From an uncultured Actinomycetota bacterium (GTDB lineage Bacteria; Actinomycetota; Humimicrobiia; Humimicrobiales; Humimicrobiaceae): a stretch of DNA of 51,922 nucleotides. The DNA lies in contig CAYZUS010000010.1 of assembly GCA_964481885.1 (NCBI GenBank), forward strand, positions 20,426 through 72,347. Direction: 5' to 3'. The notes beneath the pieces were generated by a model, which did not search any database, was not told the DNA's origin, and was given only the letters and a program-made list of their open reading frames with translations. Below are positions 9,810 to 50,598 of the stretch, piece after piece. Made by a program: the position numbers and the translations under genes. The number at the start of each line of letters is the position of its first letter. The first letter of the stretch is position 1.

Positions 9810-9873
9810 AATTTTTAGCTAGACTAAAGATTCCTGTAATAATTTTATTTAATTATTGAATTGGAGTATTTAT

Positions 9874-11967: not shown

Positions 11968-11974
11968 CTTAAAC

Positions 11975-12010: not shown

Positions 12011-12076
12011 AAATGAGCAATTCAAACTGAAGAGTGGATTTTTTAGTAAAAGTATTTGGAAAAGCTATTTTAGACA

Positions 12077-13192: not shown

Positions 13193-13207
13193 AAAAAGGA
13201 AATTGGA

Positions 13208-14293: not shown

Positions 14294-14317
14294 TAAACAG
14301 AAAATAAACACAGCAAA

Positions 14318-15157: not shown

Positions 15158-15162
15158 ATAAT

Positions 15163-15531: not shown

Positions 15532-15785
15532 GGTTGGAAATCAGCACAGACGGTTCTTTATGCAGAAACAGGCAGACGCACATCTCTGGCAGGCAGCAAG
15601 CAGTATTTTAAGGGTACATTTTAAAGAGCCGGAGCCTTAAATTAAAATCAGAGCCCCTGATAAAAAAGGGCATGCGGGGGCATACAGGTGAAATTAAAAT
15701 TAGTCGTTCTTTAGTACAAAGAATAAATAACACGCATTTATACAAAGCCAAAGCAACCAAACAGGTAAAAAGGTAAAATCTTAAA

Positions 15786-18374
15786 ATGGAACTTAATGTA
15801 GACAAAGGCGATCTGGAAATTTTAGCAGGATTTATTGAAGAATCCATTGAACATTTTGAAGGTATAGAAGAAAAGATACTTCAGCTGGAGCAATCAAGAG
15901 ACAGCGAGCTTATAAACAGTATTTTCAGGTCAGTTCACACAGTGAAAGGAACCTCCTCATTTCTGGGCCTGAAAGAAATCGAGTATTTCAGCCATAAGCT
16001 TGAAACGCTTCTTGATGAAGTCCGAAATAACCGCATCGAGATTAACTCTGACATTATAGACATACTTCTTGAGGGTGCCGATATCCTTTTTAAAATGATA
16101 CTTGAATTAAAGGCGGCACTTAACAGCCCGGACTCACAAACTGATAAGGAAGGCAAAGTTGTACTGAATATAAAAGAGGTTGATTTTTCTGAATCGGAAA
16201 CAAAGATAAAAGAACTGCTGGCAAGTACGGAAAAAACACTTGAAACTCCGGCAGCAGCAAAAGAAAAAGTGGCAGCCGAACCACCAAAAGAAAAAACATC
16301 TGTCAAATTTGAATTCGATAAAAGCCTTAAAACCGATTATATACAGGAAGCCGAAGAGCATGTTACAAATATAGAAGAACTGCTTTTAAAACTGGAGACA
16401 AATAATAAAGACTTTGAATTGTACAACGACCTGTTCAGGGCGCTGCACAGTATCAAAGGAAATACGGACCTCGTAATTTCGACAATAACTGATGAGGAGC
16501 AAAAGAAAAGCCACCCCCTAAACTACATGAGGGAGATTGCGCATAAAGCCGAAAGCATTATTCAGCTAAAAAGAGACAAAAAAAATCCTATAAATTTACC
16601 GGAATTTGACCTGTTTTTTTCAGCCTGTGATGCTTTAAAAATACTTTTGGGTGAATTTAAAAATGGTAAAGGTTTAAACTTTAATCCTGTGGCGGTCATA
16701 GAGAATTTAAAAAGCGCCAGTGAAAGCAAGAAAGATCCAAAGGGCAAAAACGATAATGCAATTCTGGAGAATGTTTTTAACAGCGCACAGTCAGCTACAG
16801 AATTTGCAGTGGCAAATACAATAATTCAATGCATAGAAGCATTTGCAGACGGGATAGATGGCCTTAATGATATCGAGAAGATGGACAAATCCCAGAAAAA
16901 AATCAGCCGAAGTTTAAAGACTCTTTTAAACCTCGGTAAAAAAATATCTCATACTCTTCTAATTGAGACGAGTGAAAAATCAATCGAGCTGATTAACATT
17001 TTTTCAGATCCTGAATCAGATGATGTTGAAAAAAACCGTATCATAACAGAGCTTGCTAATAATCTTGACACATTAAAAGAAAAAGGTGAAAGAAGAAAAG
17101 CTTCAGTAACTGCTCAAAAAGTTGCTGGCGAGCAGGAAGATGCTGAGAAGGGTCCTGATAAAAAAACAGAGTTAACAACCATAAAGGTACCGCTTGAAAG
17201 ACTCGATAAAATGATGAACCTTGTCGGTGAGCTCGTGGTATTTAAGAATAATTTCCAGTATGTTTACAAAGAGCTTTCTGTCATAGATAATATCGGATCC
17301 ATTAATAAAAAAATAAAAAACATTGGAGATTCATTAAGCAGAGTTTCAGAAGAACTTCAGATTACCATCATGTCGGCCAGGATGATCCCTGTTAACAGTG
17401 TGTTTTCCAAGTTCCCCAGAATGGTAAGGGACCTTTCCAAGAAAATGAACAAGAAAATAAATCTTGTAATAGAAGGCGAGGAAACAGAGCTTGACAAAAC
17501 AGTCATAGAAGCAATAGGCGACCCAATGGTCCACCTTATAAGAAATTGCGTCGATCATGGCATAGAACTGCCGGCTGATCGCCAAAACTGTGGCAAACCT
17601 GAAGAAGGGACCATCAGGCTGAAAGCGTATAATTTTGGCCAAAGCGTAATAATAGAAATAATTGATGACGGGAAAGGTGTTAACCCCGAAGTCATAAGGA
17701 AGAAAGTACTGGAAAAGGGCCTGCTTTCTGAAGAAGTTTTAAACAAGATGTCGGAAGGCGATATTAAAAATCTTATCTTCCTGCCGGGATTTTCAACTGC
17801 TGCGGCTGTAACTGAAGTGTCGGGCAGGGGCGTAGGTATGGATGTGGTTAAAACCAACATTGAAAAAATAGGCGGTTCTGCAAGGCTTGAAAGCGAATTG
17901 GGCGTTGGAACGACAATTACCCTTGTACTGCCACTGACTCTTTCAATAAGCAGGGGACTAAATGTGGAGTGCTGCGGCCAGAATTTCTATCTCCCACTGG
18001 ATTATGTAATAGAGACTGTAAAAATCCCTGTTGACAGTATAGTAAAACACAAGGATATGGAAATCATTATGATAAGGGACAAGCTCGTGGCATTTTTCAG
18101 GCTGGAAAAATTGCTTGGCCTGGCAAGAAATAATGGAAATAATAAGGACGAGGCAGCTTCGGGCAGTAAAAAAAGTAATAATTTAAATGTCGTAATGCTG
18201 GAAATAAATAATAACACAATCGCAATGGAAGTGGACAGAGTTCTTGATGAAAGCAGCTTTATGGTAAAGCCATTAACAGGCATCGTCAGTAATATTGAAG
18301 TTGCTTCCGGGGCAGTTATTAGTGCAAAAGGTGATCTTATACTTGTACTTAATCCCCCATTATTATTTGCCTAA
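15786..18374 (+). CDS. cheA: Chemotaxis histidine kinase CheA with two HPt (P1) domains
   Basis: Two HPt boxes ('FRSVHTVKGTSSFLG' and 'FRALHSIKGNTDLV'). Also has P3 'IKVPLERLDKMMNLVGELV', P4 'HLIRNCVDHGIE...DDGKGV...GRGVGMDVV' and a C-terminal CheW-like P5. Confidence 0.95.
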   Translation: MELNVDKGDLEILAGFIEESIEHFEGIEEKILQLEQSRDSELINSIFRSVHTVKGTSSFLGLKEIEYFSHKLETLLDEVRNNRIEINSDIIDILLEGADILFKMILELKAALNSPDSQTDKEGKVVLNIKEVDFSESETKIKELLASTEKTLETPAAAKEKVAAEPPKEKTSVKFEFDKSLKTDYIQEAEEHVTNIEELLLKLETNNKDFELYNDLFRALHSIKGNTDLVISTITDEEQKKSHPLNYMREIAHKAESIIQLKRDKKNPINLPEFDLFFSACDALKILLGEFKNGKGLNFNPVAVIENLKSASESKKDPKGKNDNAILENVFNSAQSATEFAVANTIIQCIEAFADGIDGLNDIEKMDKSQKKISRSLKTLLNLGKKISHTLLIETSEKSIELINIFSDPESDDVEKNRIITELANNLDTLKEKGERRKASVTAQKVAGEQEDAEKGPDKKTELTTIKVPLERLDKMMNLVGELVVFKNNFQYVYKELSVIDNIGSINKKIKNIGDSLSRVSEELQITIMSARMIPVNSVFSKFPRMVRDLSKKMNKKINLVIEGEETELDKTVIEAIGDPMVHLIRNCVDHGIELPADRQNCGKPEEGTIRLKAYNFGQSVIIEIIDDGKGVNPEVIRKKVLEKGLLSEEVLNKMSEGDIKNLIFLPGFSTAAAVTEVSGRGVGMDVVKTNIEKIGGSARLESELGVGTTITLVLPLTLSISRGLNVECCGQNFYLPLDYVIETVKIPVDSIVKHKDMEIIMIRDKLVAFFRLEKLLGLARNNGNNKDEAASGSKKSNNLNVVMLEINNNTIAMEVDRVLDESSFMVKPLTGIVSNIEVASGAVISAKGDLILVLNPPLLFA

Positions 18375-29750: not shown

Positions 29751-30422
29751 ATGAAAATAGAAGTCATTGAAAATGTAATGCAATACAATAAGGAAGAAGC
29801 AGACATTAACAGGGTTCTGTTTGAAACCAGCAAAGTGCTTGTCGTAAACATACTGTCAGCTCCGGGTGCAGGCAAGACAACTCTCATAATGGAGACCATC
29901 AGGAGGATTGGCAAACAATATAATATCGGAGTAATTGAGGGAGACATCTCATCAACTCACGATTCTGAAAAAATAAAATCATTGACAGATGATGTAGTAC
30001 AGATCAACACTGGCGGGACGTGCCATCTTAATGCTTCAATGGTTGCAAAAGCTGTTGAAAAGCTGGACATCAAAAAGATTGATATATTATTTATAGAAAA
30101 CGTTGGAAACCTGATTTGTCCAGTAGGTTTTGACCTCGGAGAGTCCTGCAGGCTGCTTCTTTCTTCTGTGAGTGAGGGGGATGACAAACCTGTAAAATAC
30201 CCCAAAGCCTTTATTAAAACGGATCTTGTCATACTGAATAAAACTGACATGCTTCCTTACAGTGATTTTAATGATGACTTTTTTTCCGGAAAGATAAGAG
30301 AACTAAATCCTGAAATTGAAATAATCAGGCTTTCCAGTAAAAATGGCCAGGGATTCGGTGACTGGATAAGCTGGATAGAGAAAAAAGCAGCAGCAAAAAT
30401 CAGCGGCAAAATAGAAAAGTAA
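29751..30422 (+). CDS. hypB: Hydrogenase nickel-insertion GTPase HypB
   Basis: 'SAPGAGKTTL', 'ENVGNLICP', 'LNKTD'. GGAG RBS. Confidence 0.93.
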   Translation: MKIEVIENVMQYNKEEADINRVLFETSKVLVVNILSAPGAGKTTLIMETIRRIGKQYNIGVIEGDISSTHDSEKIKSLTDDVVQINTGGTCHLNASMVAKAVEKLDIKKIDILFIENVGNLICPVGFDLGESCRLLLSSVSEGDDKPVKYPKAFIKTDLVILNKTDMLPYSDFNDDFFSGKIRELNPEIEIIRLSSKNGQGFGDWISWIEKKAAAKISGKIEK

Positions 30423-30832: not shown

Positions 30833-31696
30833 ATGCGAATAAGGCTTGGAAAATATTTTATAGATATAAAAAGAAGCTATGTCGGCAGCATGGACCAACC
30901 GGCAGATTCAGCTGATAATAATTCTTTGCCTCTGGCCATTGCTGATAAAGCAGCATCGGATACCTCTAAATCTGCAACCGTCAATCCTGTTTTAAGTAAA
31001 GATACCAATTCCAGTGATATAAACACAATAGAGTTTGTGTCACATGAATTAAAAGGAGTTCTTGGTTCCACGATTCTATGTGTGTATTCAATAAGGGATG
31101 GTTTGCTGGGAATGCTTAATTTCAAACAGAGGGCCAGCGTGGAGACCACCATAAGAAACTTAAGAAGGCTTGAATCGACAATTAAAGATTTCCTGGACAT
31201 ATCCCGGCTGGAAAATGGAAAATTAAAAGTGCGGAAAACCAGTATTAAAGTATCCGAAGAAATTATAAATGAGGTTGAAGATGCATTTTTAACTGAGATT
31301 TATGAAAACAGGGTCGTTTTTGAAAACAGGATACCAAAGGACCTGGTAATAGTCTCAGACAGGACCCTTCTTATGACTATTTTTAATAATCTTGTCAGTA
31401 ATGCAATCAAATACGGCGTTAATGGCGGCAATATAGTTATAGATACCCATGATGGGGAAACTGAAAATAATATCAGCTTTAGTGTATATAATGACGGGAT
31501 ACCGATAACAGAGGAAGATAAATCAAAATTGTTTAAAAAATTTTCGAGACTTGAAAGAGAGCAGGATAAAAAAATAAAAGGAACAGGGCTTGGGCTGTTT
31601 ATAATAAATGATATAATCGAAAGCCTCGGCGGGAGCATCAGGGTTGAAACAAAAGATAATGGCAATGAGTTTATATTTGAGATAGAAAGGGTTTAG
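30833..31696 (+). CDS. Soluble histidine kinase (HisKA + HATPase_c) without a recognisable sensor domain
   Basis: H-box 'FVSHELKGVL', N-box 'NLVSNAIKYG', G-boxes 'YNDGIPI' and 'GTGLGLFIINDIIESLGG'. The stop lies 2 nt before the next ATG. Confidence 0.85.
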   Translation: MRIRLGKYFIDIKRSYVGSMDQPADSADNNSLPLAIADKAASDTSKSATVNPVLSKDTNSSDINTIEFVSHELKGVLGSTILCVYSIRDGLLGMLNFKQRASVETTIRNLRRLESTIKDFLDISRLENGKLKVRKTSIKVSEEIINEVEDAFLTEIYENRVVFENRIPKDLVIVSDRTLLMTIFNNLVSNAIKYGVNGGNIVIDTHDGETENNISFSVYNDGIPITEEDKSKLFKKFSRLEREQDKKIKGTGLGLFIINDIIESLGGSIRVETKDNGNEFIFEIERV

Positions 31697-31698: not shown

Positions 31699-34600
31699 AT
31701 GGCTACAGCTATAGAAAACCTGAAAAGTATCAAACAGAATGCTATACAGGACCTTATTGAAAAAGGTCTGCTGTCTGCCACTCGAATTTATGTGGGTATG
31801 TCCACTTGCGAGATTGCAGCCGGAAGCAAAGATGTATGGGATACTTTTCAGAAAGAAATCGCAGACAATTCAATAAAAGATGTACAGTTAAAACAGAAAG
31901 GTTGTGCGGGCAGATGCAATCTTGAACCGACTGTTGAAGTTTTACAGGCGGGAAAGGTACCTTTCAAGTACATAAACGTAAACAGTGAAAAAGCAAAAGA
32001 GATTATAAAAAAACACCTTCTCGAAAACAGCGCCCAGTCTGCAGAAAGATCAGTAAATTTAAAAACGGATCCTTTTGTACTGACTGACAGGTCAAAGTTT
32101 GTCTTCGGAGATGTTGATTTTTTCAGCAAACAAAAAAGAATAACACTTAGAAACTGTGGGATCATTGATCCTGAAAGCATAGATGATTATTTATCAGTAA
32201 GAGGCTATGAATCCCTGGCCAAAGTTCTTACAGATTATACTCCGGGACAGGTCGTGGAAGAGATAACAAAGTCCGGCTTAAGAGGCAGAGGCGGCGGCGG
32301 TTTCCCAACAGGACTTAAATGGAAGCTTGTCGCAAAAGAAGAAGAAAAGGAAAAATATGTAATCTGTAACGCAGATGAGGGTGACCCGGGTGCATTTATG
32401 GACAGAAGTGCCCTTGAAGGAGATCCGCATATCGTCATTGAGGGAATGGTGATTGCCGGCTATGCAGTAGGCGCAAAAAAAGGTTTTGTCTATATCAGGG
32501 CCGAATATCCTCTTGCAATTGAAAGGTTAAGAATAGCAATAAAAGATGCTGAAAAGAATGGTTTCCTGGGTAAAAATATTCTTGGAACAGATTTTAGCTT
32601 TGATATAGAGCTTGTACTTGGTGCAGGCGCATTTGTTTGCGGCGAAGAAACCGCGCTGATACACTCGATAGAGGGTGGCAGAGGCGTCCCGACTACCAAA
32701 CCTCCTTATCCTGCGGTAAGCGGGCTTTGGAACAAGCCGACACTTATAAATAATGTGGAAACATTTGCAAATATTGGCGTTATAATCCTTGATGGTTATG
32801 AGAATTTTGCTTTAATCGGCACAGAAGAAAGCAAAGGTACCAAGGTTTTTGCGCTTTCAGGCAAGGTCAATAACACAGGTCTTATCGAAGTTCCGATGGG
32901 AATTACTTTAAGGGAGATTGTTTATGATATTGGCGGCGGAATAAAAGATAATAAGAAATTCAAGGCATTGCTGACAGGCGGACCTTCCGGAGGCTGTATT
33001 CCTGAGGAATTTCTTGACAGTAAAGTAGATTATGATTCATTAAAGGCACTTGGCTCGATAATGGGCTCCGGTGGAATGATAGTGCTTGATGAAGATGATT
33101 GCATGATAGACATTGCAAGGTATTTTCTTGAGTTTACTCAAAACGAATCCTGCGGCAAATGTACGCCCTGCCGTGAAGGGACCAAAAGAATGCTTGAGAT
33201 ACTTACCAGGATAACTTCCGGAAAAGGGGAAGAAATAGATATTGAAAATCTGATGCGACTTGCCAATCTTATAAAAAAGACTGCACTTTGCGGACTCGGA
33301 CAATCTGCGCCTAACCCGGTACTGACAACAATGAAGTATTTTAAAAATGAATACGACGAACATGTGAAGTTGAAAAAATGTACTGCTGCAGTTTGCAAGG
33401 GAATAATCTCATCACCGTGCCAGCATTCATGCTTTATCGGCGGCAGCGGGATACCTTCCTATATAGGCCTTATAGCTCAGGAAAAATTTGATAAAGCAGT
33501 AAAGATACTTTACAGCGAAAATCCTCTGCCAATTATATGCGGAAGGGTATGCCACCATCCGTGTGAAAGCAAATGCAGAAGAGGAAAGATAGACAAACCT
33601 ATAGCAATCAGGGAAATAAAAAGATTTCTTACCGATTATGCCATGGAAAATAAGATGGATGGCATGCCGGTTCCCGGTACAGTAAAAGAAGGAAAAGTGG
33701 CCATCATCGGTTCCGGCCCCTCCGGACTTACATGCGCCTACTATCTTGCGCTTGAAGGTTATAAAGTTACTATTTTTGAAAAACTACCTGTCGCAGGGGG
33801 GATGCTTGCTGTTGCAATACCTGAATACAGGCTTCCAAAAGCATTACTGCAATACGAGATAAACAATATCCTAAGCCTCGGAGTTGAGCTTAAGTTAAAT
33901 ACTGAGATTGGAAAAGACATAAGTTTTTCGGATCTCAAAAAAGAGTTTAAAGCGATATTTATTGCAGCAGGCGCACACAAAGGACTGAAACTTTCGATAC
34001 CGGGTGAAGATTTGCCCGGTGTTATGGATGCAGTTGACCTGCTCAGAGATATAAACCTTGGGAAAAAAGTAAATATTGGAGAGAGAGCAGCTGTCATTGG
34101 CGGTGGAAATGCTGCAATCGATGCAGTAAGGACGCTTTCGAGACTTGGCGTAAAAGCCAGCCTTCTATACAGGAGGACAAAAAATGAAATGCCTGCATGG
34201 CAGGAAGAGGTAGATGAAGCCATAAATGAAGGTATCGACATACAATACCTTGTCGCACCGGTCAGGGCGATTGCAGAAAATGGCAGAATCAAAAAACTTG
34301 AGTGTATCAGGATGGAGCTTGGTGACATTGATAAAAGTGGCAGGAGAAGGCCCGTTCCAAAGCAGGGCTCTGAATTTATAATTGAGATAGATACGCTTGT
34401 GCCGGCCATAAGCCAGGAACCTGATATTGAATTTATTTCAAATGAAAAAAATGGAATAAAGCTTTCGAAATGGAAAACCATAGAGGTTAATGAAGAAACT
34501 TACTATACAGGAGCGGACGGTATTTTTGCAGGCGGAGATGTTGTTCTTGGTCCCAAAACAGTTACCGAAGCCATGTCACACGGAAAAGTAGCTGCCCTGA

Positions 34601-34848
34601 TGATAGACAAATACATAAAGGGTGAAGAACTTACAAGGAAATACAGCGTTACAAAGCCTGCTGCTGATGTTGCCATTATTGAAATGACTGAAGAGGAAAT
34701 CGAGAGTCTTGAAAGATTTGACGTACCAATGCTTGAAATGGCACAAAGAAAAGGCAATTTTATTGAAACAGAACTAGGGTTTTCCATGCACCAGGCTGTA
34801 TGTGAAGCAAAGCACTGCTTAAGGTGCGATAAGGAGGAAAAAGAATAA
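31699..34848 (+). CDS. Fusion protein: thioredoxin-like [2Fe-2S] domain + NuoF/HydB-like flavin/NADH module + GltD/NfnB-like FAD/NADPH oxidoreductase module
   Basis: The NuoF part has 'GLRGRGGGGFPTGLKW', 'CNADEGDPGAF' and 'ESCGKCTPCREG'. The GltD part has 'NPLPIICGRVCHHPCESKCRR', 'VAIIGSGPSGLTCAYYLA' and 'AAVIGGGNAAIDAVRT'. Confidence 0.9.
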   Translation: MATAIENLKSIKQNAIQDLIEKGLLSATRIYVGMSTCEIAAGSKDVWDTFQKEIADNSIKDVQLKQKGCAGRCNLEPTVEVLQAGKVPFKYINVNSEKAKEIIKKHLLENSAQSAERSVNLKTDPFVLTDRSKFVFGDVDFFSKQKRITLRNCGIIDPESIDDYLSVRGYESLAKVLTDYTPGQVVEEITKSGLRGRGGGGFPTGLKWKLVAKEEEKEKYVICNADEGDPGAFMDRSALEGDPHIVIEGMVIAGYAVGAKKGFVYIRAEYPLAIERLRIAIKDAEKNGFLGKNILGTDFSFDIELVLGAGAFVCGEETALIHSIEGGRGVPTTKPPYPAVSGLWNKPTLINNVETFANIGVIILDGYENFALIGTEESKGTKVFALSGKVNNTGLIEVPMGITLREIVYDIGGGIKDNKKFKALLTGGPSGGCIPEEFLDSKVDYDSLKALGSIMGSGGMIVLDEDDCMIDIARYFLEFTQNESCGKCTPCREGTKRMLEILTRITSGKGEEIDIENLMRLANLIKKTALCGLGQSAPNPVLTTMKYFKNEYDEHVKLKKCTAAVCKGIISSPCQHSCFIGGSGIPSYIGLIAQEKFDKAVKILYSENPLPIICGRVCHHPCESKCRRGKIDKPIAIREIKRFLTDYAMENKMDGMPVPGTVKEGKVAIIGSGPSGLTCAYYLALEGYKVTIFEKLPVAGGMLAVAIPEYRLPKALLQYEINNILSLGVELKLNTEIGKDISFSDLKKEFKAIFIAAGAHKGLKLSIPGEDLPGVMDAVDLLRDINLGKKVNIGERAAVIGGGNAAIDAVRTLSRLGVKASLLYRRTKNEMPAWQEEVDEAINEGIDIQYLVAPVRAIAENGRIKKLECIRMELGDIDKSGRRRPVPKQGSEFIIEIDTLVPAISQEPDIEFISNEKNGIKLSKWKTIEVNEETYYTGADGIFAGGDVVLGPKTVTEAMSHGKVAALMIDKYIKGEELTRKYSVTKPAADVAIIEMTEEEIESLERFDVPMLEMAQRKGNFIETELGFSMHQAVCEAKHCLRCDKEEKE

Positions 34849-36608: not shown

Positions 36609-36812
36609 CCTGTTTTGCCAGAATTCGTTTTACTGACAGACAATATTGCCTGCCGGTTTGTCCGGAGATTAAATTAGAGGTTTGTCAGTAAGTTTGTTTG
36701 AAACAGCCTAAAAAAGATTGTGCACATGAGGTGGTTTTAGCTAAAGCGGGTGCAAAAGTTTTGTTGGAATTATTTTTAATTAAGTGAAAATTGTTAAGAT
36801 AAGAGGTAAGAA

Positions 36813-38021: not shown

Positions 38022-39050
38022 ATGCTTTATAAAGTTCTGGACAAGAATAATTACAGGGATTTCTTATCCGGCCTTATTAAGAGTTACAATGTTACGGGGC
38101 CAAAGAAAATAAATAATTTCCTTCACGATTTTGTACCGATTAAAAATGTTGAAGAAATCGATACGGGATACTTAAAAACAACACTTCCTCCAGCCAAAAA
38201 AATATTGTTTCCATCCAAAGAAGGGCTTGTCAGCTATACCACAGATACTATCAAAACAGAATCTCTAAATAACAGCGAAGAACTGATACTTTTTGGTATA
38301 AATGCCTGGGATTTAAACGGGATGAATTTTCTTGACAAAATATTTACCACAGATTTCATAGATGACAATTATGTGGAAAAAAGAAACAAATTAATTGTTA
38401 TCGGAATGGATACCACACCTTCTGAAACTAATTTTGCCGTAGAAATGGGTGCTTCTTATGCAAAATCCGGCTTTGATCTTTTCATGACAGATATCGGAAG
38501 CAAATACTTTATCAGGGTCGCCACACCAAAAGGGACAGAGCTTTTGTTAAAATACGCAAAAGTAAGTGAAGCTCTTACTGCAGATTTCAATGCCTACGAT
38601 AAGTTTACAGAGGAATATGCCGGCAAGTTTAAAGTTTCTGCTGATCTAGGTAATTTCCATGAAAATTTCGAAGTAACATATAGTAAAAATGATCTCTGGG
38701 AAGGTCTTTCAAAAAACTGTTTTTCCTGTGGTTCATGCAACCTTGTATGCCCAACCTGTTTTTGTTTTAACGTTAAAGATGATATGAAAATAGATTTAAA
38801 GACAGGCATCAAATCGCGTGAATGGGACTCCTGCATGATTCCCGATTACGGACTTGTTGCAGGCGGCCATAATTTCAGGCCCACAAAAGCGAACAGGCTG
38901 AAACAGCGCTACAGGTGCAAGCTTAAAACATTCGTTGATAAATTTGGCAGTTATTCCTGCGTCGGATGTGGAAGATGTGCTGAAGCCTGCCTTGCCAAAA
39001 TAAATATTTGTGAAGATATTAATGCAATAAAGAAAGAGGTGAGTTTGTAA
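38022..39050 (+). CDS. Group-3b-type [NiFe]-hydrogenase Fe-S subunit (sulfhydrogenase beta / AsrA-like)
   Basis: 'CFSCGSCNLVCPTCFCF' and 'CVGCGRCAEAC'. First gene of a tightly packed four-gene operon. Confidence 0.8.
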   Translation: MLYKVLDKNNYRDFLSGLIKSYNVTGPKKINNFLHDFVPIKNVEEIDTGYLKTTLPPAKKILFPSKEGLVSYTTDTIKTESLNNSEELILFGINAWDLNGMNFLDKIFTTDFIDDNYVEKRNKLIVIGMDTTPSETNFAVEMGASYAKSGFDLFMTDIGSKYFIRVATPKGTELLLKYAKVSEALTADFNAYDKFTEEYAGKFKVSADLGNFHENFEVTYSKNDLWEGLSKNCFSCGSCNLVCPTCFCFNVKDDMKIDLKTGIKSREWDSCMIPDYGLVAGGHNFRPTKANRLKQRYRCKLKTFVDKFGSYSCVGCGRCAEACLAKINICEDINAIKKEVSL

Positions 39051-39052
39051 AA

Positions 39053-39913
39053 ATGGTACAGCAAATGGCAGAAAAAACAAAAGACAAGCCTTTATATGTT
39101 CCCTACATAGCCACTATTACAGAAACTGAAAATCTCACCCCTACCGAAAAAAAATTTGTCATCCAGTTTGATGATAAAGAAAAAAGAGAAAGTTTTACTT
39201 TTTTACCCGGACAATTTTTGGAGGTCACAGTTTTTGGAATCGGTGAGGCTCCATTTTCCATTCCTTCATCGCCAAACCAGAAGGGTTCTTTTGAATTATG
39301 CGTAAGAAACATTGGAAGTGTCTCTGGTGCAATGCACAAAATGCAGGTCGGAGCCAAAATAGGGATAAGGGGACCATTTGGAAAAGGCTATTTCCCATAT
39401 GAGAAAATGAAGGGAAATAATGTTGTTATAATTGCAGGAGGACTAGGGCTGGCTCCGGTAAGATCACTTATTAAGCTTATTCTTGAGGATAGAAAAAGCT
39501 ATAAGGGCGTAACACTGATATATGGTTGTGTTGAACCAAATCTTTTACTCTACAAAGATGAAGTGGCAGAATATCAAAAAAGAGATGACATCGACGTCCT
39601 TCTGACAGTTGACAGGCCTGATGAGAGCTGGAAGGAATCGGTTGGCGTATGCACAAACCTCATTCCGGGACTTAAGTATCTTCCTGAAGAGACTTATGCA
39701 GTTGTGTGCGGTCCGCCGATAATGTATAGATTTGTAATGATCGAACTTGAGGAAAAGAAATATAAACCGGAAAATATTTTTCTTGATATGGAAAGAAGAA
39801 TGGAATGCGGAGTCGGCAAATGCAACCACTGCCATATTGGTGATAAATTATGCTGTGTTGATGGCCCGATATTCAGTTTATGGGAAATAAAGAATTTAAA
39901 GGAGGCATTATAA
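39053..39913 (+). CDS. Group-3b-type [NiFe]-hydrogenase FAD/NAD(P)-binding subunit (sulfhydrogenase gamma / AsrB-like)
   Basis: FNR-like fold ('PGQFLEV', 'GPFG', 'IAGGLGLAP') with a C-terminal 'CGVGKCNHCHIGDKLCCVDGP' 2Fe-2S motif. Confidence 0.85.
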   Translation: MVQQMAEKTKDKPLYVPYIATITETENLTPTEKKFVIQFDDKEKRESFTFLPGQFLEVTVFGIGEAPFSIPSSPNQKGSFELCVRNIGSVSGAMHKMQVGAKIGIRGPFGKGYFPYEKMKGNNVVIIAGGLGLAPVRSLIKLILEDRKSYKGVTLIYGCVEPNLLLYKDEVAEYQKRDDIDVLLTVDRPDESWKESVGVCTNLIPGLKYLPEETYAVVCGPPIMYRFVMIELEEKKYKPENIFLDMERRMECGVGKCNHCHIGDKLCCVDGPIFSLWEIKNLKEAL

Positions 39914-40663
39914 ATGAGTAAGCCAAAAGTTGGAGTATTTGGTCTGACAGGCTGTGGCGGATGCCAGCTTGAAATACTAAATCTTGAAGATCAGCTGATT
40001 GATTTTATTAGTGCCGTAGATATTGTACATTTTACCGAAGCAATTTCCGAGCATAGCGATACATATGATATTGCCCTGATTGAAGGCTCTGTTTCAACAA
40101 TGCATGATGTCGAGAGGCTCGAGCACATCGGTAAAATCGCAAAAATTATTATTGCTGTTGGTGCTTGTGCATGCACAGGCGGCCTGAATTGTCTTAAAAA
40201 CTTATATGGCACTGAAAAGGCCAAAGAGCTTGTATATGGTGATAAAAAAGGATGGATAGATGCCATAGATACAAAACCAATAAGTGAATATGTAAAAGTT
40301 GATTATCAGGCAAGGGGATGCCCTCCTACAAGATCTGAAATTGTAGATATAGTCAGTGCCCTGATAGTTGGTAAAGTTCCTGAGATACCAACATATCCTG
40401 TTTGCGTTGAGTGTAAAAGGCTTGGTAATACATGCCTTTATGAATTTGGAATCAGTTGTCTTGGGCCTGTTGCAAGAGCCGGATGCGACGCAAGGTGCCC
40501 AAGCGCAAAATCAGGCTGTGAAGCTTGCCGGGGATCTGTTGATAATCCGAACGTAAATGCTCAGAAAGAATTGCTTACCCAATACGGGCTTACAGTTGAG
40601 GATATTATGGAGGGTTTCAATCTTTATAATGCCTGTGTAAAAATAGAACAAAAATCTAAATAA
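39914..40663 (+). CDS. [NiFe]-hydrogenase small (delta) subunit, cytoplasmic group 3 type
   Basis: 'GLTGCGGCQLE', 'GACACTGG', 'GCPP' and distal Cys clusters. No Tat signal. Confidence 0.9.
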   Translation: MSKPKVGVFGLTGCGGCQLEILNLEDQLIDFISAVDIVHFTEAISEHSDTYDIALIEGSVSTMHDVERLEHIGKIAKIIIAVGACACTGGLNCLKNLYGTEKAKELVYGDKKGWIDAIDTKPISEYVKVDYQARGCPPTRSEIVDIVSALIVGKVPEIPTYPVCVECKRLGNTCLYEFGISCLGPVARAGCDARCPSAKSGCEACRGSVDNPNVNAQKELLTQYGLTVEDIMEGFNLYNACVKIEQKSK

Positions 40664-40685
40664 TTATTTTTTGGAGGTCAATGAT

Positions 40686-41987
40686 ATGGCGACAAATTTA
40701 AATATAGAAGTAGCTCCTCTGCCAAGGGTAGAGGGCCATGGTGATTTGGTTTTAAATGTAAAGGATAAGAAAATAGAAAAACTCCAGATGAGGATTCCTG
40801 AATCACCAAGGTTTTTTGAAGCGATGCTTGTAGGCAGGAATTATACTGAACCATCACAAATAACATCAAGGATTTGCGGCATATGCTCAGTTGCTCATAC
40901 CTTTACGTCAATTCAGGCAACAGAAGCTGCTCTTGATGTTAAGCTTAATGAACAGATCATCAGGCTGAGAAAACTTGTAAACCACGGAGAATATATTCAG
41001 AGCAACAGCCTTCACGTATTCTTCCTGGCTGCACCGGATTTTCTTGGTATTGGCAGCGTATTGCCTTTGCTTGAAACAAATCCCGCAGTTGTAAATATTG
41101 CCGTAAAAGTAAAAAAGATAGGAAATGAAATAGTCAGGATAATCGGCGGCAGGGCGGTTCACCCAATTACTACTGTAGTTGGAGGTTTTACAAAACTCCC
41201 GGCAGAAGAAGGGCTCCTGAAATTAAGGGAAATGCTTGTTTCGCTTTATCCGGACGTAGTGACTTCTGTCGCTGTTTTAAAGACTTTAAAGATTCCCGAT
41301 TTTGAAAGGGAAACAGAGTATATCTGCCTGAGGAATAATGAGGACTATTCACTTTATGATGGCGATATTGTATCGTCTGATGGGTGGACAATAAAGCCTG
41401 CAGACTACCTCAGCAAAATTAAAGAAAAAGTTGTACAACATTCTACCGGAAAGCATTGCAGCGCTTCACGTGATTCATACATGGTAGGCGCGCTTTCAAG
41501 GGTAAATAACAATTATTCACAGCTATCTGACAATGCAAAGACCTATGCTGAAGAACTTGGCCTGAAAGTGCCATGTTATAATACTTATATGATCAGCATT
41601 GCCCAGTTTGTAGAAATTGTCCATTGCGTTGATGACAGCATAAGGCTTATTGATGAGATTCTTGCAGCCGGGCTTGACGAAGAGAAATTCATGGCTCCAG
41701 TAAAGGTAAAAGCCGGAAGGGGAGTTGGAGCCGTTGAGGCGCCAAGAGGCCTTTTAATACATGACTATACTTACGATGAAAAAGGCAAAGTCACCAAAGC
41801 CAATCTTATAATACCGACAAACATGAACTATGCAAATATTGAACTCGACATGGCTCAGCTGGTACCGGCGATAATGGAGAAAACTGAGGATGAAATAAGA
41901 CTTGCATGTGAGATGATGATTAGGGCATATGATCCCTGTATTTCATGTTCGACTCATCTGCTGAATGTTGAGTTTGTAAATAAATAG
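40686..41987 (+). CDS. [NiFe]-hydrogenase large (alpha) subunit
   Basis: N-terminal 'RICGICSVAH' and C-terminal 'DPCISCSTH' followed by a 9-aa tail for proteolytic maturation. I prefer the ATG at 40686 (GGAGG 8 nt upstream) over the TTG at 40671. Confidence 0.93.
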   Translation: MATNLNIEVAPLPRVEGHGDLVLNVKDKKIEKLQMRIPESPRFFEAMLVGRNYTEPSQITSRICGICSVAHTFTSIQATEAALDVKLNEQIIRLRKLVNHGEYIQSNSLHVFFLAAPDFLGIGSVLPLLETNPAVVNIAVKVKKIGNEIVRIIGGRAVHPITTVVGGFTKLPAEEGLLKLREMLVSLYPDVVTSVAVLKTLKIPDFERETEYICLRNNEDYSLYDGDIVSSDGWTIKPADYLSKIKEKVVQHSTGKHCSASRDSYMVGALSRVNNNYSQLSDNAKTYAEELGLKVPCYNTYMISIAQFVEIVHCVDDSIRLIDEILAAGLDEEKFMAPVKVKAGRGVGAVEAPRGLLIHDYTYDEKGKVTKANLIIPTNMNYANIELDMAQLVPAIMEKTEDEIRLACEMMIRAYDPCISCSTHLLNVEFVNK

Positions 41988-42262: not shown

Positions 42263-43591
42263 GTGACAAAACAAATCAAAGACCTGGCCATAGTTAATAC
42301 GAAAGATGAAGAAGACGTCCCAATGCTGATAATGCCCGAAGAAGCTTTTGAAGGGGATTACATTATTGCTTCCTATTATTATGCATCCAGGATTGCCGGC
42401 GAGGATATATATGAGAAAGCCAAATCATTTGCAGCGGGCCAGACAATAGGGACATGGGTGCCTATACCGGGTATTACCAGACAAATGAAGGAGCTGCATG
42501 GCGGAAGGCTCGTAAGCATTTACGACATACCTCCGACAGAACTTACAACGGATGAGCCAGTGTTTAATTCCCACATTGTTCAAATCGCATTTCCGGATAA
42601 TAATTTTTCTCCACAGTTTCCAATGATGTTTACCACTCTTTTGGGTAATGATGTTTCCACATCTGCACAGGTAAAACTTATTGACATCAGATTTTCCAGG
42701 AATTATTTAAAAGCCTTCAAAGGTCCTCGATTTGGAATAGACGGCATCTATAAATATCTTGATATTCCAATAAGAAGACCCGTGGTCCTTAACATGATAA
42801 AGCCTTGCCTGGGTTACAGTCCCTCCGAAGGTGCACAATTCTTCAAAGAGATAGCACTGGGTGGTGTTGACATCATCAAAGATGACGAACTGCTTGCAGA
42901 TACGACCTACAGTTCAATAGTCGACAGGGTAAAGGCATATAATCTGGCGGCAAAAGAAGTACATGCCGGTACCGGCCATAAAACTGTCTATTGCGTCAAC
43001 ATAACAGACAGGCTTGACAGGTGCATTGAAAACGCCGTAAGGGCCATTGACGCAGGTGCTGAAATGCTCATGGTTAACTTTATAGCCTCAGGCCTTTCAA
43101 CCTTACAGGCATTGTCGGAAGACAGCAGAATAACTGTGCCGATTGTAGGGCATTATGCAAGTGCGGGTTCAATTACGGAATCCTGCAATACCGGTATTTC
43201 AACTCCAATACTTCTGGGAAAACTGGCAAGAATGGCAGGAGCTGATATTGTTTTATTCAGTTCTCCTTACAGTACTTATCCTTTCCTTAAAAGAAGATAC
43301 AGGCAGATAGCGGACATGCACAGGCTTTCCTTTTGCGGACTTCAGACAACAATGCCGGCAGTCGGCGGCGGAGTCCATCCAAACAGTGCTGAAAAAATAG
43401 TAAAAGATCTTGGTAAAGAGATTATACTGGCAGTTGGCGGCGCTATACTGGGACACCCCAATGGTCCGACCGAGGGGGCAAAAGCAATGATGCAGGCGGC
43501 ACATGCTCTGGGACAGGGTATAAATCTTTATGAAATTGCCGGGAACAAAGGATATGAATCCTTAAAGATATCCCTGGAAAAGTGGCAGTAA
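42263..43591 (+). CDS. RuBisCO large-subunit-like protein (form IV RLP)
   Basis: 'AAGQTIGTW', 'MIKPCLGYS', 'GGVDIIKDDE' and 'GGGVHP' show the RuBisCO fold with substitutions at several carboxylase residues. GTG start with AGGAGA RBS. Confidence 0.8.
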   Translation: MTKQIKDLAIVNTKDEEDVPMLIMPEEAFEGDYIIASYYYASRIAGEDIYEKAKSFAAGQTIGTWVPIPGITRQMKELHGGRLVSIYDIPPTELTTDEPVFNSHIVQIAFPDNNFSPQFPMMFTTLLGNDVSTSAQVKLIDIRFSRNYLKAFKGPRFGIDGIYKYLDIPIRRPVVLNMIKPCLGYSPSEGAQFFKEIALGGVDIIKDDELLADTTYSSIVDRVKAYNLAAKEVHAGTGHKTVYCVNITDRLDRCIENAVRAIDAGAEMLMVNFIASGLSTLQALSEDSRITVPIVGHYASAGSITESCNTGISTPILLGKLARMAGADIVLFSSPYSTYPFLKRRYRQIADMHRLSFCGLQTTMPAVGGGVHPNSAEKIVKDLGKEIILAVGGAILGHPNGPTEGAKAMMQAAHALGQGINLYEIAGNKGYESLKISLEKWQ

Positions 43592-46379: not shown

Positions 46380-47840
46380 TTACCAGCTGCCGGTTTTAAT
46401 ATAATCGTCCATTGCGATTGCAGCAATTCTCCCGGCACCCATGGCGAGTATTACTGTGGCCGTGCCTGTCACTATGTCTCCACCGGCAAAAACACCTTTT
46501 TTGCTTGTTTTGCCTGATGAGTCCGCGACAATATTGCCTCTCTTGTTTAAACTTATATCAGGAGATGTCTGCATAAGTACAGGGTTTGGACCCTGGCCTA
46601 TTGCAATTACAACAATATCTGTATCAATATCATACTCAGAGTCTTTTACGGGAACCGGTCTTCTGCGCCCTGAATCATCGGGCTCGCCAAGCTCCATCCT
46701 GATACATCTTACTTTTTTGACCCATCCTTTTTCTCCAAGAAGTTCAACCGGGTTTGTCAAAAACACCATTTCAATGCCTTCTTCTATTGCATGGTGTATT
46801 TCTTCAATCCTGCCCGGCATTTCAACTTCGCTTCTTCTGTAAATAATATATACTTTTTTGGCTCCAAGTCTTTTGGCAGTCCTGGCTGAGTCCAGGGCAA
46901 CATTGCCGCCGCCAACAACTGAAACTATATTACCCTTTATAACCGGAGTATCCCACTGGGGGAAAAGATATGCTTTCATGAGGTTTACTCTTGTAAGGTA
47001 TTCATTTGCAGAATATACACCATTAAAGTTTTCTCCGGGAATTCCAAGGAAATAGGGGAGTCCTGCGCCTGTACCTACAAATATACTTTTATAACCGCTC
47101 TCCAGCAGTTCATCAATTGTATAAGTTTTTCCAACTATCATGTTAAGCTTTAAGTCCACTCCAAGGCTCTTGACAAAATCAACCTCCTGCTGGACAATTG
47201 CCTTCGGAAGCCTGAATTCCGGAATACCATACACAAGAACTCCTCCGGCATAATGAAGAGCTTCAAACATTGTGACTGCATATCCAAGCCTTGCAAGCTC
47301 ACCCGCACATGTCAGCCCTGCCGGTCCGGAACCTATAACTGCTGTCTTTATTTTTTCTTTTTTATTTTTCTGTCCGGCATTTAAACTGTCTTCAGGAACA
47401 CCTTCCAAAGACTTGCCGACATAAAGTTTTTCCTTTTCACTGTCAGCCACAAATCTTTCAAGCTTTCCTATTGCGACAGGATCATCTTTAATACCAAGTA
47501 TACACACCTTTTCACACTGATCCTCCTGAGGGCATACCCTTCCGCAGACACCCGGCAGTGCATTTTTTTCCCTGATTTTTTCAAGAGCCTTTTTATATTC
47601 CTTTTGACTTATAAGGGCAATAAAGCTCTTGATGTCGATTTCAACCGGGCAGCCATCTATACATTTGGGTTTTTTGCACATGAGGCATCTGGAACTTTCA
47701 AGCAAAGCTTCCTGCTCAGTATAGCCCAGCTCGACTTCATTAAAATTATTTACCCTCACTTCGGGCTTCTGCTGTGCTATTTTGGTCCGGGGGGTTTTGA
47801 TTTTTTTTGGTTTTTTCTCGTTTGTTATATCATCTTGCAT
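46380..47840 (-). CDS. nfnB: GltD-family NADPH-dependent oxidoreductase, NfnB/SudA-like large subunit
   Basis: 'CLMCKKPKCIDGCPV', 'GRVCPQEDQCEKVC', 'VIGSGPAGLTCAGELA', 'VVGGGNVALDSART'. Overlaps the upstream partner gene by 16 nt. Confidence 0.85.
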   Translation of the reverse strand: MQDDITNEKKPKKIKTPRTKIAQQKPEVRVNNFNEVELGYTEQEALLESSRCLMCKKPKCIDGCPVEIDIKSFIALISQKEYKKALEKIREKNALPGVCGRVCPQEDQCEKVCILGIKDDPVAIGKLERFVADSEKEKLYVGKSLEGVPEDSLNAGQKNKKEKIKTAVIGSGPAGLTCAGELARLGYAVTMFEALHYAGGVLVYGIPEFRLPKAIVQQEVDFVKSLGVDLKLNMIVGKTYTIDELLESGYKSIFVGTGAGLPYFLGIPGENFNGVYSANEYLTRVNLMKAYLFPQWDTPVIKGNIVSVVGGGNVALDSARTAKRLGAKKVYIIYRRSEVEMPGRIEEIHHAIEEGIEMVFLTNPVELLGEKGWVKKVRCIRMELGEPDDSGRRRPVPVKDSEYDIDTDIVVIAIGQGPNPVLMQTSPDISLNKRGNIVADSSGKTSKKGVFAGGDIVTGTATVILAMGAGRIAAIAMDDYIKTGSW

Positions 47841-48685
47841 TTGTGTTTCTCCGTATATTCTTTAAAAGCCACGTTTTCTTCATTACAATAAATATTAAGC
47901 CTGTCCAAAAGCAGGCCAAAATCAACAAGGTGCCCGTCAAATTCAGGGCCATCCACACATGCAAATTTTGTTTTTTTATCAACTTCAACCCTGCATGAGC
48001 CGCACATACCTGTGCCGTCAACCATTATGGGGTTTAACGATACAATAGTATGGATTCCGTGTGGCCTGGTTACTTCACTAACAGCTTTCATCATTAAAGC
48101 AGGTCCAATTGCAATGACCCGTGAAAATATTCTTTCAGGATTGCTTTTAAGGTAGTCAGCCAAAAAGCCTGACACAAAGCCTTTGTAACCAATACTTCCA
48201 TCATCAGTGCAGATATAAAATTCACTGCTGTTTTCTTTTATAATATCCTCGAAAATAAGCCCATCAGTATTTTTTGCACCTAGGATGGAAACAACATAAT
48301 TTCCTGCTTGCTTCATTGCTTTGATTATTGGAAGGGTAGGAGCAATTCCGACACCTCCACCAATAATTGCCACATTGCCGAAATTATCTATTTCTGTATT
48401 TTTCCCCAAAGGCCCGGCGACATCAGGCAAAACGTCGCCCACATTTAGGTCTGCCAAAAGGTGTGTCGATTTCCCCCTCTTAAGAATCGTCAGGTTAATC
48501 AGTCCTTCAGTTTTGTCACTGTCAGCTATTGTCAAAGGAATCCGTTCGCCTGTTTGTGTGGCCCTTACCACGACAAACTGTCCTGCAAGAGCTTTTGCAG
48601 CAATTACATCGTTAAATACTTCAAGGCTGGTGATGTCTTTTGATAGTATTGATTTTTTAATAATTTTATTAAAATTACTCAACAT
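47825..48685 (-). CDS. nfnA: FNR-like flavoprotein with C-terminal 2Fe-2S, NfnA/SudB-like small subunit
   Basis: 'GQFVVV', 'GPLG', 'IIGGGVGIAP', 'GTGMCGSCRVEVDKKTKFACVDGPEF'. Confidence 0.85.
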   Translation of the reverse strand: MLSNFNKIIKKSILSKDITSLEVFNDVIAAKALAGQFVVVRATQTGERIPLTIADSDKTEGLINLTILKRGKSTHLLADLNVGDVLPDVAGPLGKNTEIDNFGNVAIIGGGVGIAPTLPIIKAMKQAGNYVVSILGAKNTDGLIFEDIIKENSSEFYICTDDGSIGYKGFVSGFLADYLKSNPERIFSRVIAIGPALMMKAVSEVTRPHGIHTIVSLNPIMVDGTGMCGSCRVEVDKKTKFACVDGPEFDGHLVDFGLLLDRLNIYCNEENVAFKEYTEKHKCKMI

Positions 48686-48861: not shown

Positions 48862-49368
48862 GTGAAAAAAATAGAAGTTAACGCTCCAAACAGAAAAATT
48901 ATAAAAATAATTGGATTTGGCAATATTTTTATGGGAGATGACGGCATCGGTATCCGAGTAATTGAAGAGATGACAAAGCAGCAGATTTTTAAGGACGAAG
49001 AAGAGATCGAGATTGTTGACGGGGGTACCTCTGGAGTTGATCTGATTTTTATGCTCCAGGACGTGTCTCTGGCCATTATTATTGATGCTGTTGATGCCGG
49101 CCAGGAAATTGGCAGGATTGTTGTTTTTGCGCCTCATGAGATAGCAGGTTTTAAAAAACAGGTATTTAAAAGTTATTCACTTCATGACATCGACCTTGCT
49201 GAAGCATTTGAGCTTGTAAAAACACTTAATTTACCCGCTAAAATCAAAATAATCGGCATTAAACCAAAACATATCGGCTACAGTGACAAGCTAAGCCCTG
49301 AAATAGAAAACAGTATACCGGCAATAATAGAAATGATAAAAAAAGAAGTATCAGCAGAAATATTTTAA
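48862..49368 (+). CDS. [NiFe]-hydrogenase maturation endopeptidase (HycI/HoxW/FrhD family)
   Basis: 'IIGFGNIFMGDDGIGIRV', 'VDGGTSG', 'IIIDAVD', 'SLHDIDL'. The GTG start is uncertain. Confidence 0.85.
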   Translation: MKKIEVNAPNRKIIKIIGFGNIFMGDDGIGIRVIEEMTKQQIFKDEEEIEIVDGGTSGVDLIFMLQDVSLAIIIDAVDAGQEIGRIVVFAPHEIAGFKKQVFKSYSLHDIDLAEAFELVKTLNLPAKIKIIGIKPKHIGYSDKLSPEIENSIPAIIEMIKKEVSAEIF

Positions 49369-50540: not shown

Positions 50541-50598
50541 ATTGGATTAGTTCTCCTAATGGTAAAAGTGATTTTCTATCGTATTAGTTAAAAAGTTC

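Follow-up and report, generated by a model that had tools for sequence, protein, structure and literature searches.

An [FeFe]-hydrogenase gene cluster with a HydB subunit predicted to carry an NADP(H) module in place of its ferredoxin-like domain

We analysed a stretch of 51,922 nucleotides from an uncultured Actinomycetota bacterium (GenBank assembly GCA_964481885.1, contig CAYZUS010000010.1, positions 20,426 to 72,347), hereafter the window. It contains a unit in which a histidine kinase (HK), the subunits HydB, HydA and HydC of a HydABC-type [FeFe]-hydrogenase and a response regulator (RR) follow one another on the forward strand (Table 1), and its HydB is extended by a GltD/NfnL-like module with predicted FAD and NADP(H) sites. 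Electron-bifurcating HydABC/Bfu enzymes play a key part in the energy metabolism of anaerobes, and how they work is a matter of ongoing debate. A hydrogenase whose ferredoxin-output domain has been exchanged at the preceding hinge is a natural test of what the low-potential branch can drive, and it also bears on whether H2 can couple to both pyridine-nucleotide pools without ferredoxin.

A HydB subunit joined to a GltD/NfnL-like module

The fused gene had been recognized in an earlier reading made from the DNA letters alone (the sequence-only reading), which reported a single open reading frame (ORF) for 1049 aa. Translation confirms it, unbroken from its ATG to its stop with no internal stop codon, and every motif quoted from it is in place: GRGGGGFPTGLKW (residues 195-207), CNADEGDPGAF (223-233), ESCGKCTPCREG (483-494), CQHSC (574-578), GRVCHHPCESKCRR (615-628), IIGSGPSGLTCAYYL (669-683) and VIGGGNAAIDAVRT (799-812). 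Four of the Pfam profiles proposed for mapping its domains matched, namely PF01512 (Complex1_51K; residues 189-359, 1e-47), PF10589 (NADH_4Fe-4S; 471-555, 9e-35), PF14691 (Fer4_20; 561-652, 1e-19, over profile positions 19-112 only) and PF07992 (Pyr_redox_2; 666-962, 8e-31), and an SLBB domain (PF10531) was found at residues 383-432. Together with alignments to solved chains, these matches uphold the claim that a HydB/NuoF subunit is covalently joined to a GltD/NfnB-like FAD/NADP(H) module. The protein scores below every NCBIfam family cutoff. Across a set of 24 fusions, C468, C485, C488, C491, C531, H555, C561, C566, C574, C578, C618, C622, C626, K641, C1040 and C1043 are invariant. We consider it very probable, judging from the sequence, that the protein is the beta subunit of a heterotrimeric HydABC (Bfu-type) enzyme, in which a NuoF/HydB core is followed by a permuted, Lys-type NfnL/GltD module replacing the ferredoxin-like domain.

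The N-terminal half of this architecture is that of a bifurcating B subunit up to and including the hinge. Residues 29-572 are ~55-65% identical to the solved bifurcating B subunits of A. woodii HydB (7q4v_B), S. ovata StnB (8oh5_B), A. mobile NiFe-HydB (7t2r_B), T. sibiricus NfnB (9n5u_B) and C. saccharolyticus NfnB (9bov_B). The N-terminal domain gave no Pfam match at 1e-3; its thioredoxin-like nature, as first proposed, is upheld by the alignment of residues 29-110 with the N-terminal domain of the solved StnB, NfnB and HydB chains (residues 2-~90 of 8oh5_B and 9n5u_B/9bov_B, with the same three Cys, C37, C69 and C73), and by a confident beta-alpha unit in the AlphaFold2 (AF2) model (predicted local distance difference test, pLDDT, 82-92). 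C69 and C73 are kept in at least 90% of the fusions, and the B5 site of Bfu B subunits is present as a putative cluster or Zn site. The core that follows has the NuoF-type FMN/NAD(H) domain and, in C485, C488, C491 and C531, the ligands of the [4Fe-4S] cluster B1. The B2 hinge of BfuB consists of a conserved His and three Cys (Tsi H524, C529, C534 and C437) binding Zn or a [2Fe-2S] cluster, and its His is missing from non-bifurcating HydB homologues (PMC12018979). The equivalents in the window protein are H555, C561, C566 and C468; the hinge His and Cys are aligned and conserved across all solved BfuB chains as well as among the 24 fusions. The alignment to the solved B subunits extends through the motif EHVKLKKCTAAVCKG (H555/C561/C566) and then ends.

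Replacement of the ferredoxin-like domain at the hinge

In BfuB, a ferredoxin-like domain with clusters B3 and B4 comes after the hinge (PMC12018979). Unfused relatives of the window protein (loci L053, L056, L058, L060, L061 and L070) have two CxxCxxCxxxC motifs there, followed by the end of the protein, whereas the window protein and the other fusions read SPCQHxC, eight residues past the hinge Cys. Because the junction alignment of fused and unfused relatives diverges at this point, we interpret the fusion as a clean domain swap exactly at the hinge. This junction and the solved-chain alignments bear out the suggestion that a GltD module stands in place of the C-terminal ferredoxin domains of HydB. 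The two CX2CX2CX3CP motifs of the Bfu C-terminal domain, and with them B3/B4 and the ferredoxin site, are absent; with this domain replaced by a GltD/NfnL-like module, the fusion is Bfu-derived, yet no canonical Bfu B subunit.

Structural comparison divided the protein in the same way. In Foldseek searches the N half gave template modelling (TM) scores of 0.81-0.96 to BfuB chains and the C half retrieved NfnA, StnC and NfnL; no solved chain spanning both halves was found. An AF2 monomer model built on the 24 fusions has a mean pLDDT of 80.9 and a predicted TM score (pTM) of 0.56, with the inter-module linker (residues 564-571) below pLDDT 50. Given the low linker values and pTM, the model leaves the mutual placement of the two halves undefined.

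The added module is of the StnC/NfnA type

Among solved chains, the C half came closest to the GltD insert of C. saccharolyticus NfnA (9bov_A, residues 99-567, E 4e-124), followed by T. sibiricus NfnA and S. ovata StnC, with NfnL of NfnSL (4ylf_B) behind at 3e-98; the Fe-S part aligned to 9bov_A, 9n5u_A and 8oh5_C. The C-terminal tail NFIETELGFSMHQAVCEAKHCLRCD matches the N-terminus of T. maritima NfnL (4ylf_B, residues 7-43) and residues ~530-567 of NfnA/StnC. It also matches residues 12-57 of an NfnL encoded elsewhere in the window (E 3e-6), which served as an internal control for the permutation. Since the tail aligns to the N-terminus of NfnL, the classical CxxCx4Cx3C motif is split here, with C1040-x2-C1043 at the end of the protein and C574-x3-C578 opening the module. 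The same circular permutation is present in StnC and NfnA. On this point the sequence-only reading has to be corrected: it described a complete GltD-type module, but the order of the module is not the classical one, half of its first Cys motif being placed at the far C-terminal end of the protein.

The ligands and nucleotide motifs are strongly conserved. The proximal cluster has a Glu ligand in NfnL and a Lys in NfnA/StnC (PMC12018979), and a GxGxxA sequence has been read as an NADP(H) motif (PMC7483475). At position 641 we found Lys in 47 of 55 fused modules and His in the remaining eight (8/55); all 55 have C574, C578, C618, C622 and C626 as well as R711 and the glycines of the FAD GxGxxG motif, and 54 of the 55 have C1040, C1043 and the NADP(H)-site residues of GxGxxA and YRR. 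By homology to DPD and NfnL, we take C1040, C1043, C574 and C626 to be the putative ligands of the distal cluster, and C578, C618, C622 and K641 those of the proximal one. In its sequence, the module is thus of the StnC/NfnA type, circularly permuted, with a Lys ligand, an FAD site and a GxGxxA/YRR NADP(H) site.

We had also considered a classical NfnB identity, which the permutation and the Lys ligand reject. NfnL/NfnB of NfnSL (4ylf_B, 5jca_L) shares its fold and its FAD/NADPH motifs with the module (the NfnL of the window is 43% identical to it), but in NfnL the N-terminal CxxCx4Cx3C motif is uninterrupted, the proximal cluster has a Glu ligand, the FAD bifurcates and NfnS is the partner; here the motif is split, K641 stands for Glu and no NfnS-like gene adjoins.

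Gene cluster and hydrogenase class

HydA contains a Fer2_4 domain, a NuoG-type His-cluster motif, two Fer4 domains, the H-cluster domain and the small-subunit domain, and its H-cluster motifs (L1 TSCSPAW, L2 MPCTAKKYE and L3 EIMSCPGGCINGGGQP) are those of group A [FeFe]-hydrogenases. Its best solved matches are the HydA subunits of T. kivui and A. woodii (~50% identity, E 1e-173 to 1e-181), and it passes the NCBIfam model NF040763, "NADH-dependent [FeFe] hydrogenase, group A6", with 823.5 bits against a cutoff of 765. As in Bfu A and C subunits, HydA is NuoG-like with a catalytic module and HydC NuoE-like with the [2Fe-2S] C1 motif. Pfam and the solved-chain alignments agree with the initial assignment to a HydABC-type cluster, whose described layout also proved exact: HydA starts within the HydB stop as TAATG, at 34848, and the NuoE-like HydC (PF01257) begins 204 bp past HydA. 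This spacer is AT-rich and without ORF; in relatives L081 and L082 it measures 26-52 bp. The textbook L1 motif is TSCCPxW, in which the second Cys is commonly given as a ligand of the cluster. The L1 of the window HydA (ITSCSPAW) reads TSCSPxW, and the variant is probably harmless since the characterised A. woodii HydA1 (7q4v_A) has the same one.

A comparison with group A2 that had been drawn at the outset does not hold. The HydDB rule for A2 asks for a protein immediately downstream of HydA with a GltA or GltD domain "but not NuoF" (HydDB); in the window this place is taken by the NuoE-like HydC, and it is a NuoF-type subunit that bears the GltD domain. A GltD-bearing neighbour that has NuoF points to A3 by the same rule. 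The clause "but not NuoF" itself may mean that the authors of HydDB had met such fusions.

The HK directly upstream of HydB is kept in L081-L083 and in the unfused-HydB loci L056, L058 and L060, and the position of the RR in L081-L083, L056 and L058.

Table 1. Coordinates of the HydB-GltD fusion, its parts and other features of the window
Feature	Position	Strand	Remarks
HydB-GltD fusion ORF	31699..34848	+	1049 aa; BfuB-like subunit with NfnL-like C-terminal module
N-terminal thioredoxin-like domain, aa ~25-110	31771..32028	+	C37, C69, C73 = B5 site of BfuB subunits
NuoF/HydB core, aa ~135-556	32101..33366	+	PF01512, PF10531, PF10589; CGEETAL kept
Hinge motif EHVKLKKCTAAVC	33361..33396	+	H555, C561, C566 with C468 = B2 Zn/[2Fe-2S] site before the BfuB C-terminal domain
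Fe-S part of module, aa 567-652	33397..33654	+	C574, C578, C618, C622, C626, K641; two [4Fe-4S] predicted; PF14691
FAD domain (GSGPSG, R711) and NADP(H) domain (GGGNAA = GxGxxA, Y824-R825-R826)	33676..34623	+	PF07992
C-terminal tail, aa 1009-1044, NFIETELGFSMHQAVCEAKHCLRCD	34723..34830	+	permuted first half of NfnL Cys motif (C1040, C1043)
Histidine kinase, 287 aa, without recognisable sensor domain	30833..31696	+	HisKA and HATPase_c; directly upstream of HydB
HydA, M3-type [FeFe]-hydrogenase catalytic subunit, 586 aa	34848..36608	+	Fer2_4, NADH-G_4Fe-4S_3, Fer4, Fe_hyd_lg_C, Fe_hyd_SSU
HydA-HydC spacer	36609..36812
HydC, NuoE-like [2Fe-2S] subunit, 178 aa	36813..37349	+	PF01257, 1e-48; Cx4C...Cx3C in translation
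Single-domain response regulator, 128 aa	37509..37895	+	PF00072; closes the HK-HydB-HydA-HydC-RR unit
Four-gene [NiFe]-hydrogenase cluster	38022..41987	+	directly after the response regulator
RuBisCO-large-subunit-like protein	42263..43591	+
NfnSL-type pair	46380..48685	-
NfnL of the pair	46380..47840	-
HypB, HypE, HypD ([NiFe] maturation)	29751..30422 and 49365..51876	+ and -	flanking the region
Flagellar export and chemotaxis genes	484..18374

Comparison with known systems

The window cluster has the HydA/HydB/HydC trio in common with the HydABC (FeFe-Bfu) enzymes of A. woodii, T. kivui and T. maritima (7q4v, 8a6t, 7p5h), and is ~47-65% identical to them in HydB 29-572 and ~50% in HydA. Their HydB has the B3/B4 ferredoxin docking domain, whereas the window protein has instead a ~480-aa FAD/NADP(H) module with two clusters of its own. 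With the Stn/Nfn-Bfu enzymes (StnABC of S. ovata, 8oh5; NfnABC of C. saccharolyticus, 9bov, and T. sibiricus, 9n5u) it shares both the BfuB/BfuC-like core and the permuted Lys-type module with GxGxxA and YRR, but the module is placed differently. In the Stn/Nfn enzymes, it lies within the NuoG-like A subunit after the N-terminal [2Fe-2S] domain, as also seen in the genuine Stn-type loci L074, L078 and L017, and works as the mid-potential electron input while the B subunit retains B3/B4. In the window it is appended to the B subunit, where it replaces B3/B4, and the A subunit is the hydrogenase. The predicted enzyme resembles a cross between a HydABC/Bfu hydrogenase and Stn/Nfn-Bfu. The FAD of StnC is non-bifurcating (PMC10482914).

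Fusions of this kind are already in the literature. A HydB-GltD fusion was noted in Vallitalea guaymasensis L81 (peg.3895; PMC6163223), and an archaeal group F hybrid hydrogenase has a HydB with a GltA domain, presented as an AlphaFold model only (PMC11216029). The two descriptions date from 2018 and 2024 and consist of genome annotation or AlphaFold models, with no assays. Both fusions have a NuoF-type HydB whose two-[4Fe-4S] domain is replaced by GltD or GltA within a hydrogenase cluster, a likeness drawn from their descriptions and not from their sequences; the window cluster differs from them in its gene order (HK-B-A-C-RR) and mosaic origin. Among the openly searchable papers, only these two describe the fusion; text searches for GltD, glutamate synthase or a fusion gave no hit in the Bfu survey (PMC9304861), the Hydrogenedentota paper, the HydB paper of Losey and a 2022 review of [FeFe]-hydrogenases. 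The window protein is a further member of an already described, biochemically uncharacterised architecture. What we add is the exact replacement at the hinge, the StnC/NfnA-type, permuted and Lys-ligated nature of the module, the breadth of partners, and the idea that NADP(H) stands in for ferredoxin.

Distribution, partners and mosaic origin

In a search of a 5.8-billion-protein collection we found at least 120 full-length homologues (~1000-1100 aa) with the same Pfam combination and 49-94% identity, annotated only as "NuoF" or "FAD-dependent oxidoreductase". We also took a census of the best 80 NuoF-type loci on one-genome-per-species contigs, of which 54 are fused. These belong to Omnitrophota, Armatimonadota, Chloroflexota, Desulfobacterota, Nitrospirota, Verrucomicrobiota, Bacteroidota, Acidobacteriota, Planctomycetota, Spirochaetota, Gemmatimonadota and Bacillota, plus two archaeal metagenome-assembled genomes. 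The fusion is common, occurring in more than 15 phyla including archaea; any view of it as rare or unnoticed is contradicted by the census and by the two papers that already describe it.

The same data dispose of a trivial explanation, that a frameshift or an assembly error has run separate NuoF-like and GltD-like genes together. Independent assemblies with 78-94% identity have it as a single ORF of 1045-1057 aa with the same gene neighbours, and three of them (L081-L083, 78-81%) repeat the order HK-HydB(GltD)-HydA-HydC-RR, with counterparts of the four [NiFe]-hydrogenase genes of the window next in line; the closest genome to the window locus is GCA_040961035.1. Along with the full-length homologues, the fused species-representative loci and the conserved junction, this makes an artefact so improbable that we reject it; nothing was found in its favour. 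The missed stop or frameshift that the sequence-only reading had named as its own possible undoing is likewise not seen, the same ORF being intact across independent assemblies.

The partners of the fused subunit are diverse. Among the best 80 loci, an H-cluster HydA adjoins the fused B subunit in ~16 of 51 fused loci. Elsewhere the partner is a molybdopterin formate dehydrogenase (L009, L027, L037, L066), a [NiFe] large subunit (L047), an HdrA-like protein (L003), or a small 2Fe-2S protein with a PF01645 glutamate-synthase-like protein (L001, L033, L051 and L040, the last from Promethearchaeota Loki_b31, a Lokiarchaeon). The latter loci raise the question of a true link to glutamate synthase, with the GltD-like module passing H2-derived electrons to a GltB-like subunit, and it is to L001 and L003 that the GltD part of the window protein is closest. 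We nevertheless regard such a link as very improbable in the window, where the partner is a complete [FeFe] HydA in conserved synteny; no PF01645 gene was found among the window ORFs scanned (ORFs under ~150 aa and a few others lay outside the scan).

The two halves of the fusion have different nearest relatives. The NuoF part is closest to L002 (Omnitrophota, fused, 66%) and to the unfused L056 (64%) and L058 (62%), with L001 (54%) and L003 (50%) more distant; the GltD part is closest to L003 (54%) and L001 (53%), with L002 more distant (39%). The unfused-HydB loci L053, L056, L058 and L060 share the HK-HydB-HydA-HydC-RR order of the window. These relationships favor an exchange of modules at the hinge over one ancient fusion event. 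The trees of the two halves are neighbor-joining distance trees without bootstrap, used together with the pairwise identities, and we therefore treat module exchange as a lead.

Possible coupling of H2 to NAD(H) and NADP(H)

Three redox sites for soluble substrates appear to be encoded, the H-cluster, FMN/NAD(H) and FAD/NADP(H), and the ferredoxin-docking domain is gone. The earlier prediction of a single complex with access to H2, NAD(H) and NADP(H) is reasonable; that ferredoxin is a substrate as well has become less likely, since the domain at which it docks in the solved relatives is lost. In the solved Bfu enzymes, the low-potential route leads from FMN to C1, on a mobile domain of the NuoE-like subunit, and on through B3/B4 to ferredoxin (PMC12018979). 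Given that the replaced domain ends the ferredoxin-reducing branch in these relatives, our best inference is that NADP(H) takes the place of ferredoxin. With C574 only 8 residues past the hinge Cys, the distal [4Fe-4S] cluster of the module would most likely occupy the place of B3. It would receive electrons from C1 of HydC in B3's stead, and pass them through the Lys-ligated cluster to FAD, which would gather two low-potential electrons and then reduce NADP+. Starting from the Bfu stoichiometry (2 H2 + NAD+ + 2 oxidized ferredoxins), and with one NADP+ accepting both ferredoxin electrons, the predicted reaction is 2 H2 + NAD+ + NADP+ <-> NADH + NADPH + 2 H+.

In such a scheme NADP(H) (~-380 mV in vivo) would be the lower-potential partner replacing ferredoxin and NAD(H) (~-280 mV) the higher-potential one. 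The potential of H2 is ~-300 to -355 mV at 10-1000 Pa (partly cited values, partly our own calculation) and falls between the two acceptors, so that coupling makes thermodynamic sense, if on a modest scale. Run towards H2, the reaction would let the oxidation of NADPH help to pull that of NADH, and this direction would be feasible at low H2 pressure only. We advance this NADP(H)-for-ferredoxin mechanism tentatively, as a possibility that falls somewhat short of even; as an overall explanation, the architecture together with coupled NAD/NADP turnover is the best we have, and we judge it about evenly balanced between right and wrong.

Several observations weigh against the coupled mechanism. The gap in potential between NAD(H) and NADP(H) is small, and the energetic gain from coupling would be modest accordingly. 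In NfnSL, the homologous subunit has both of its [4Fe-4S] clusters on the path to ferredoxin. A canonical NfnSL pair, linking NADH, NADPH and ferredoxin, is already encoded in the same window. The AF2 monomer, with its poorly defined linker, gives no cluster-to-cluster distance that would back the hand-over from C1 to the GltD-like module. For the archaeal HydB, ferredoxin has been guessed as the acceptor at the equivalent domain (PMC11216029), and in the openly searchable full-text literature (subscription-only papers excluded) we found no biochemistry for any fusion.

Two of these points favor an alternative in which ferredoxin, or flavodoxin, is still the low-potential partner and docks at the distal [4Fe-4S] cluster of the module, just as ferredoxin docks on the NfnL subunit of NfnSL: the ferredoxin branch of NfnSL is formed by the homologous clusters, and "likely ferredoxin" is what was assumed at the archaeal GltA domain. 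Such a complex would have four substrates (H2, NAD, NADP and ferredoxin), or its NADP(H) site would be regulatory. However, the module is of the permuted, Lys-ligated StnC/NfnA type, whose clusters relay electrons inward and bind no ferredoxin, and what is lost here is precisely the domain at which Bfu enzymes have been shown to bind ferredoxin. The retention of the FAD and NADP(H) motifs in 54-55 of the 55 fused modules also argues for a working nucleotide site. On balance, we find a ferredoxin-dependent enzyme unlikely, though a serious contender.

A second alternative is that the enzyme does not bifurcate at all, and that electrons from the H-cluster reach FMN/NAD+ or FAD/NADP+ independently, the fusion simply adding an NADPH outlet to an uncoupled hydrogenase of dual specificity. 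Non-bifurcating HydAB(C) enzymes without a B3/B4 domain do exist in S. wolfei and S. aciditrophicus (PMC7311640, PMC5626996), and the loss of B3/B4 removes a cofactor set that the Bfu authors hold to be conserved in all bifurcating members. Yet the hinge His that marks bifurcating BfuB is invariant, along with its Cys partners, and an ungated wire between NADH and NADPH would short-circuit both pyridine-nucleotide pools. Uncoupled dual specificity therefore strikes us as a rather improbable account, if one to be reckoned with.

Should the NADP(H)-for-ferredoxin mechanism apply, the enzyme would be a ferredoxin-independent member of the Bfu lineage, bifurcating or confurcating between the NAD and NADP pools. 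Since the fused B subunit also has formate dehydrogenases, [NiFe] hydrogenases, HdrA-like and glutamate-synthase-like proteins as partners, and more than 15 phyla possess it, the Bfu family would then have a general "NADP-output" branch, a generalization that we hold slightly more doubtful than the mechanism itself. Uncultured anaerobes have the fusion in abundance, under no other annotation than "NuoF" or "FAD-dependent oxidoreductase", and metabolic reconstructions that take such operons for hydrogenases bifurcating to NADH and ferredoxin may for this reason name the wrong electron carriers. A soluble hydrogenase making NADPH straight from H2 would, if true, also be of interest for biocatalysis.

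Other genes of the window

The [NiFe]-hydrogenase cluster after the RR, which is group 3b-like, encodes a Fer4_22 subunit, a PyrK-like FAD/NAD subunit, an Oxidored_q6 protein and a NiFeSe large subunit, an arrangement kept in L081-L083; its best NCBIfam matches are NADPH-dependent sulfhydrogenase HydB, HydG, HydD and HydA, all below cutoff. As this cluster adjoins the fusion cluster, two putatively NADP(H)-linked hydrogenases lie side by side, with the HK/RR pair bracketing the fusion. On either side of the region lie genes for [NiFe] maturation (HypB, HypE and HypD), and no HydE/F/G-type [FeFe] maturase was found among the window ORFs scanned, part of the ORFs lying outside the scan.

In the NfnSL-type pair, NfnL has an intact N-terminal CxxCx4Cx3C motif and the Glu ligand (IGKLERF), with a PyrK-like NfnS beside it; the genome thus already has a classical NADH/ferredoxin:NADP transhydrogenase. 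The RuBisCO-large-subunit-like protein has as its best NCBIfam match, below cutoff, the MtnW-type 2,3-diketo-5-methylthiopentyl-1-phosphate enolase, and is on this basis taken as a RuBisCO-like protein rather than a carboxylase. No tRNA was found in the window. Its first part carries the flagellar export genes FlhB and FlhA and a chemotaxis cluster (methyl-accepting chemotaxis protein, multi-CheW protein, CheB, CheR and CheA), followed by a Ser/Thr kinase and a GGDEF protein; the flagellar and chemotaxis genes indicate a motile bacterium.

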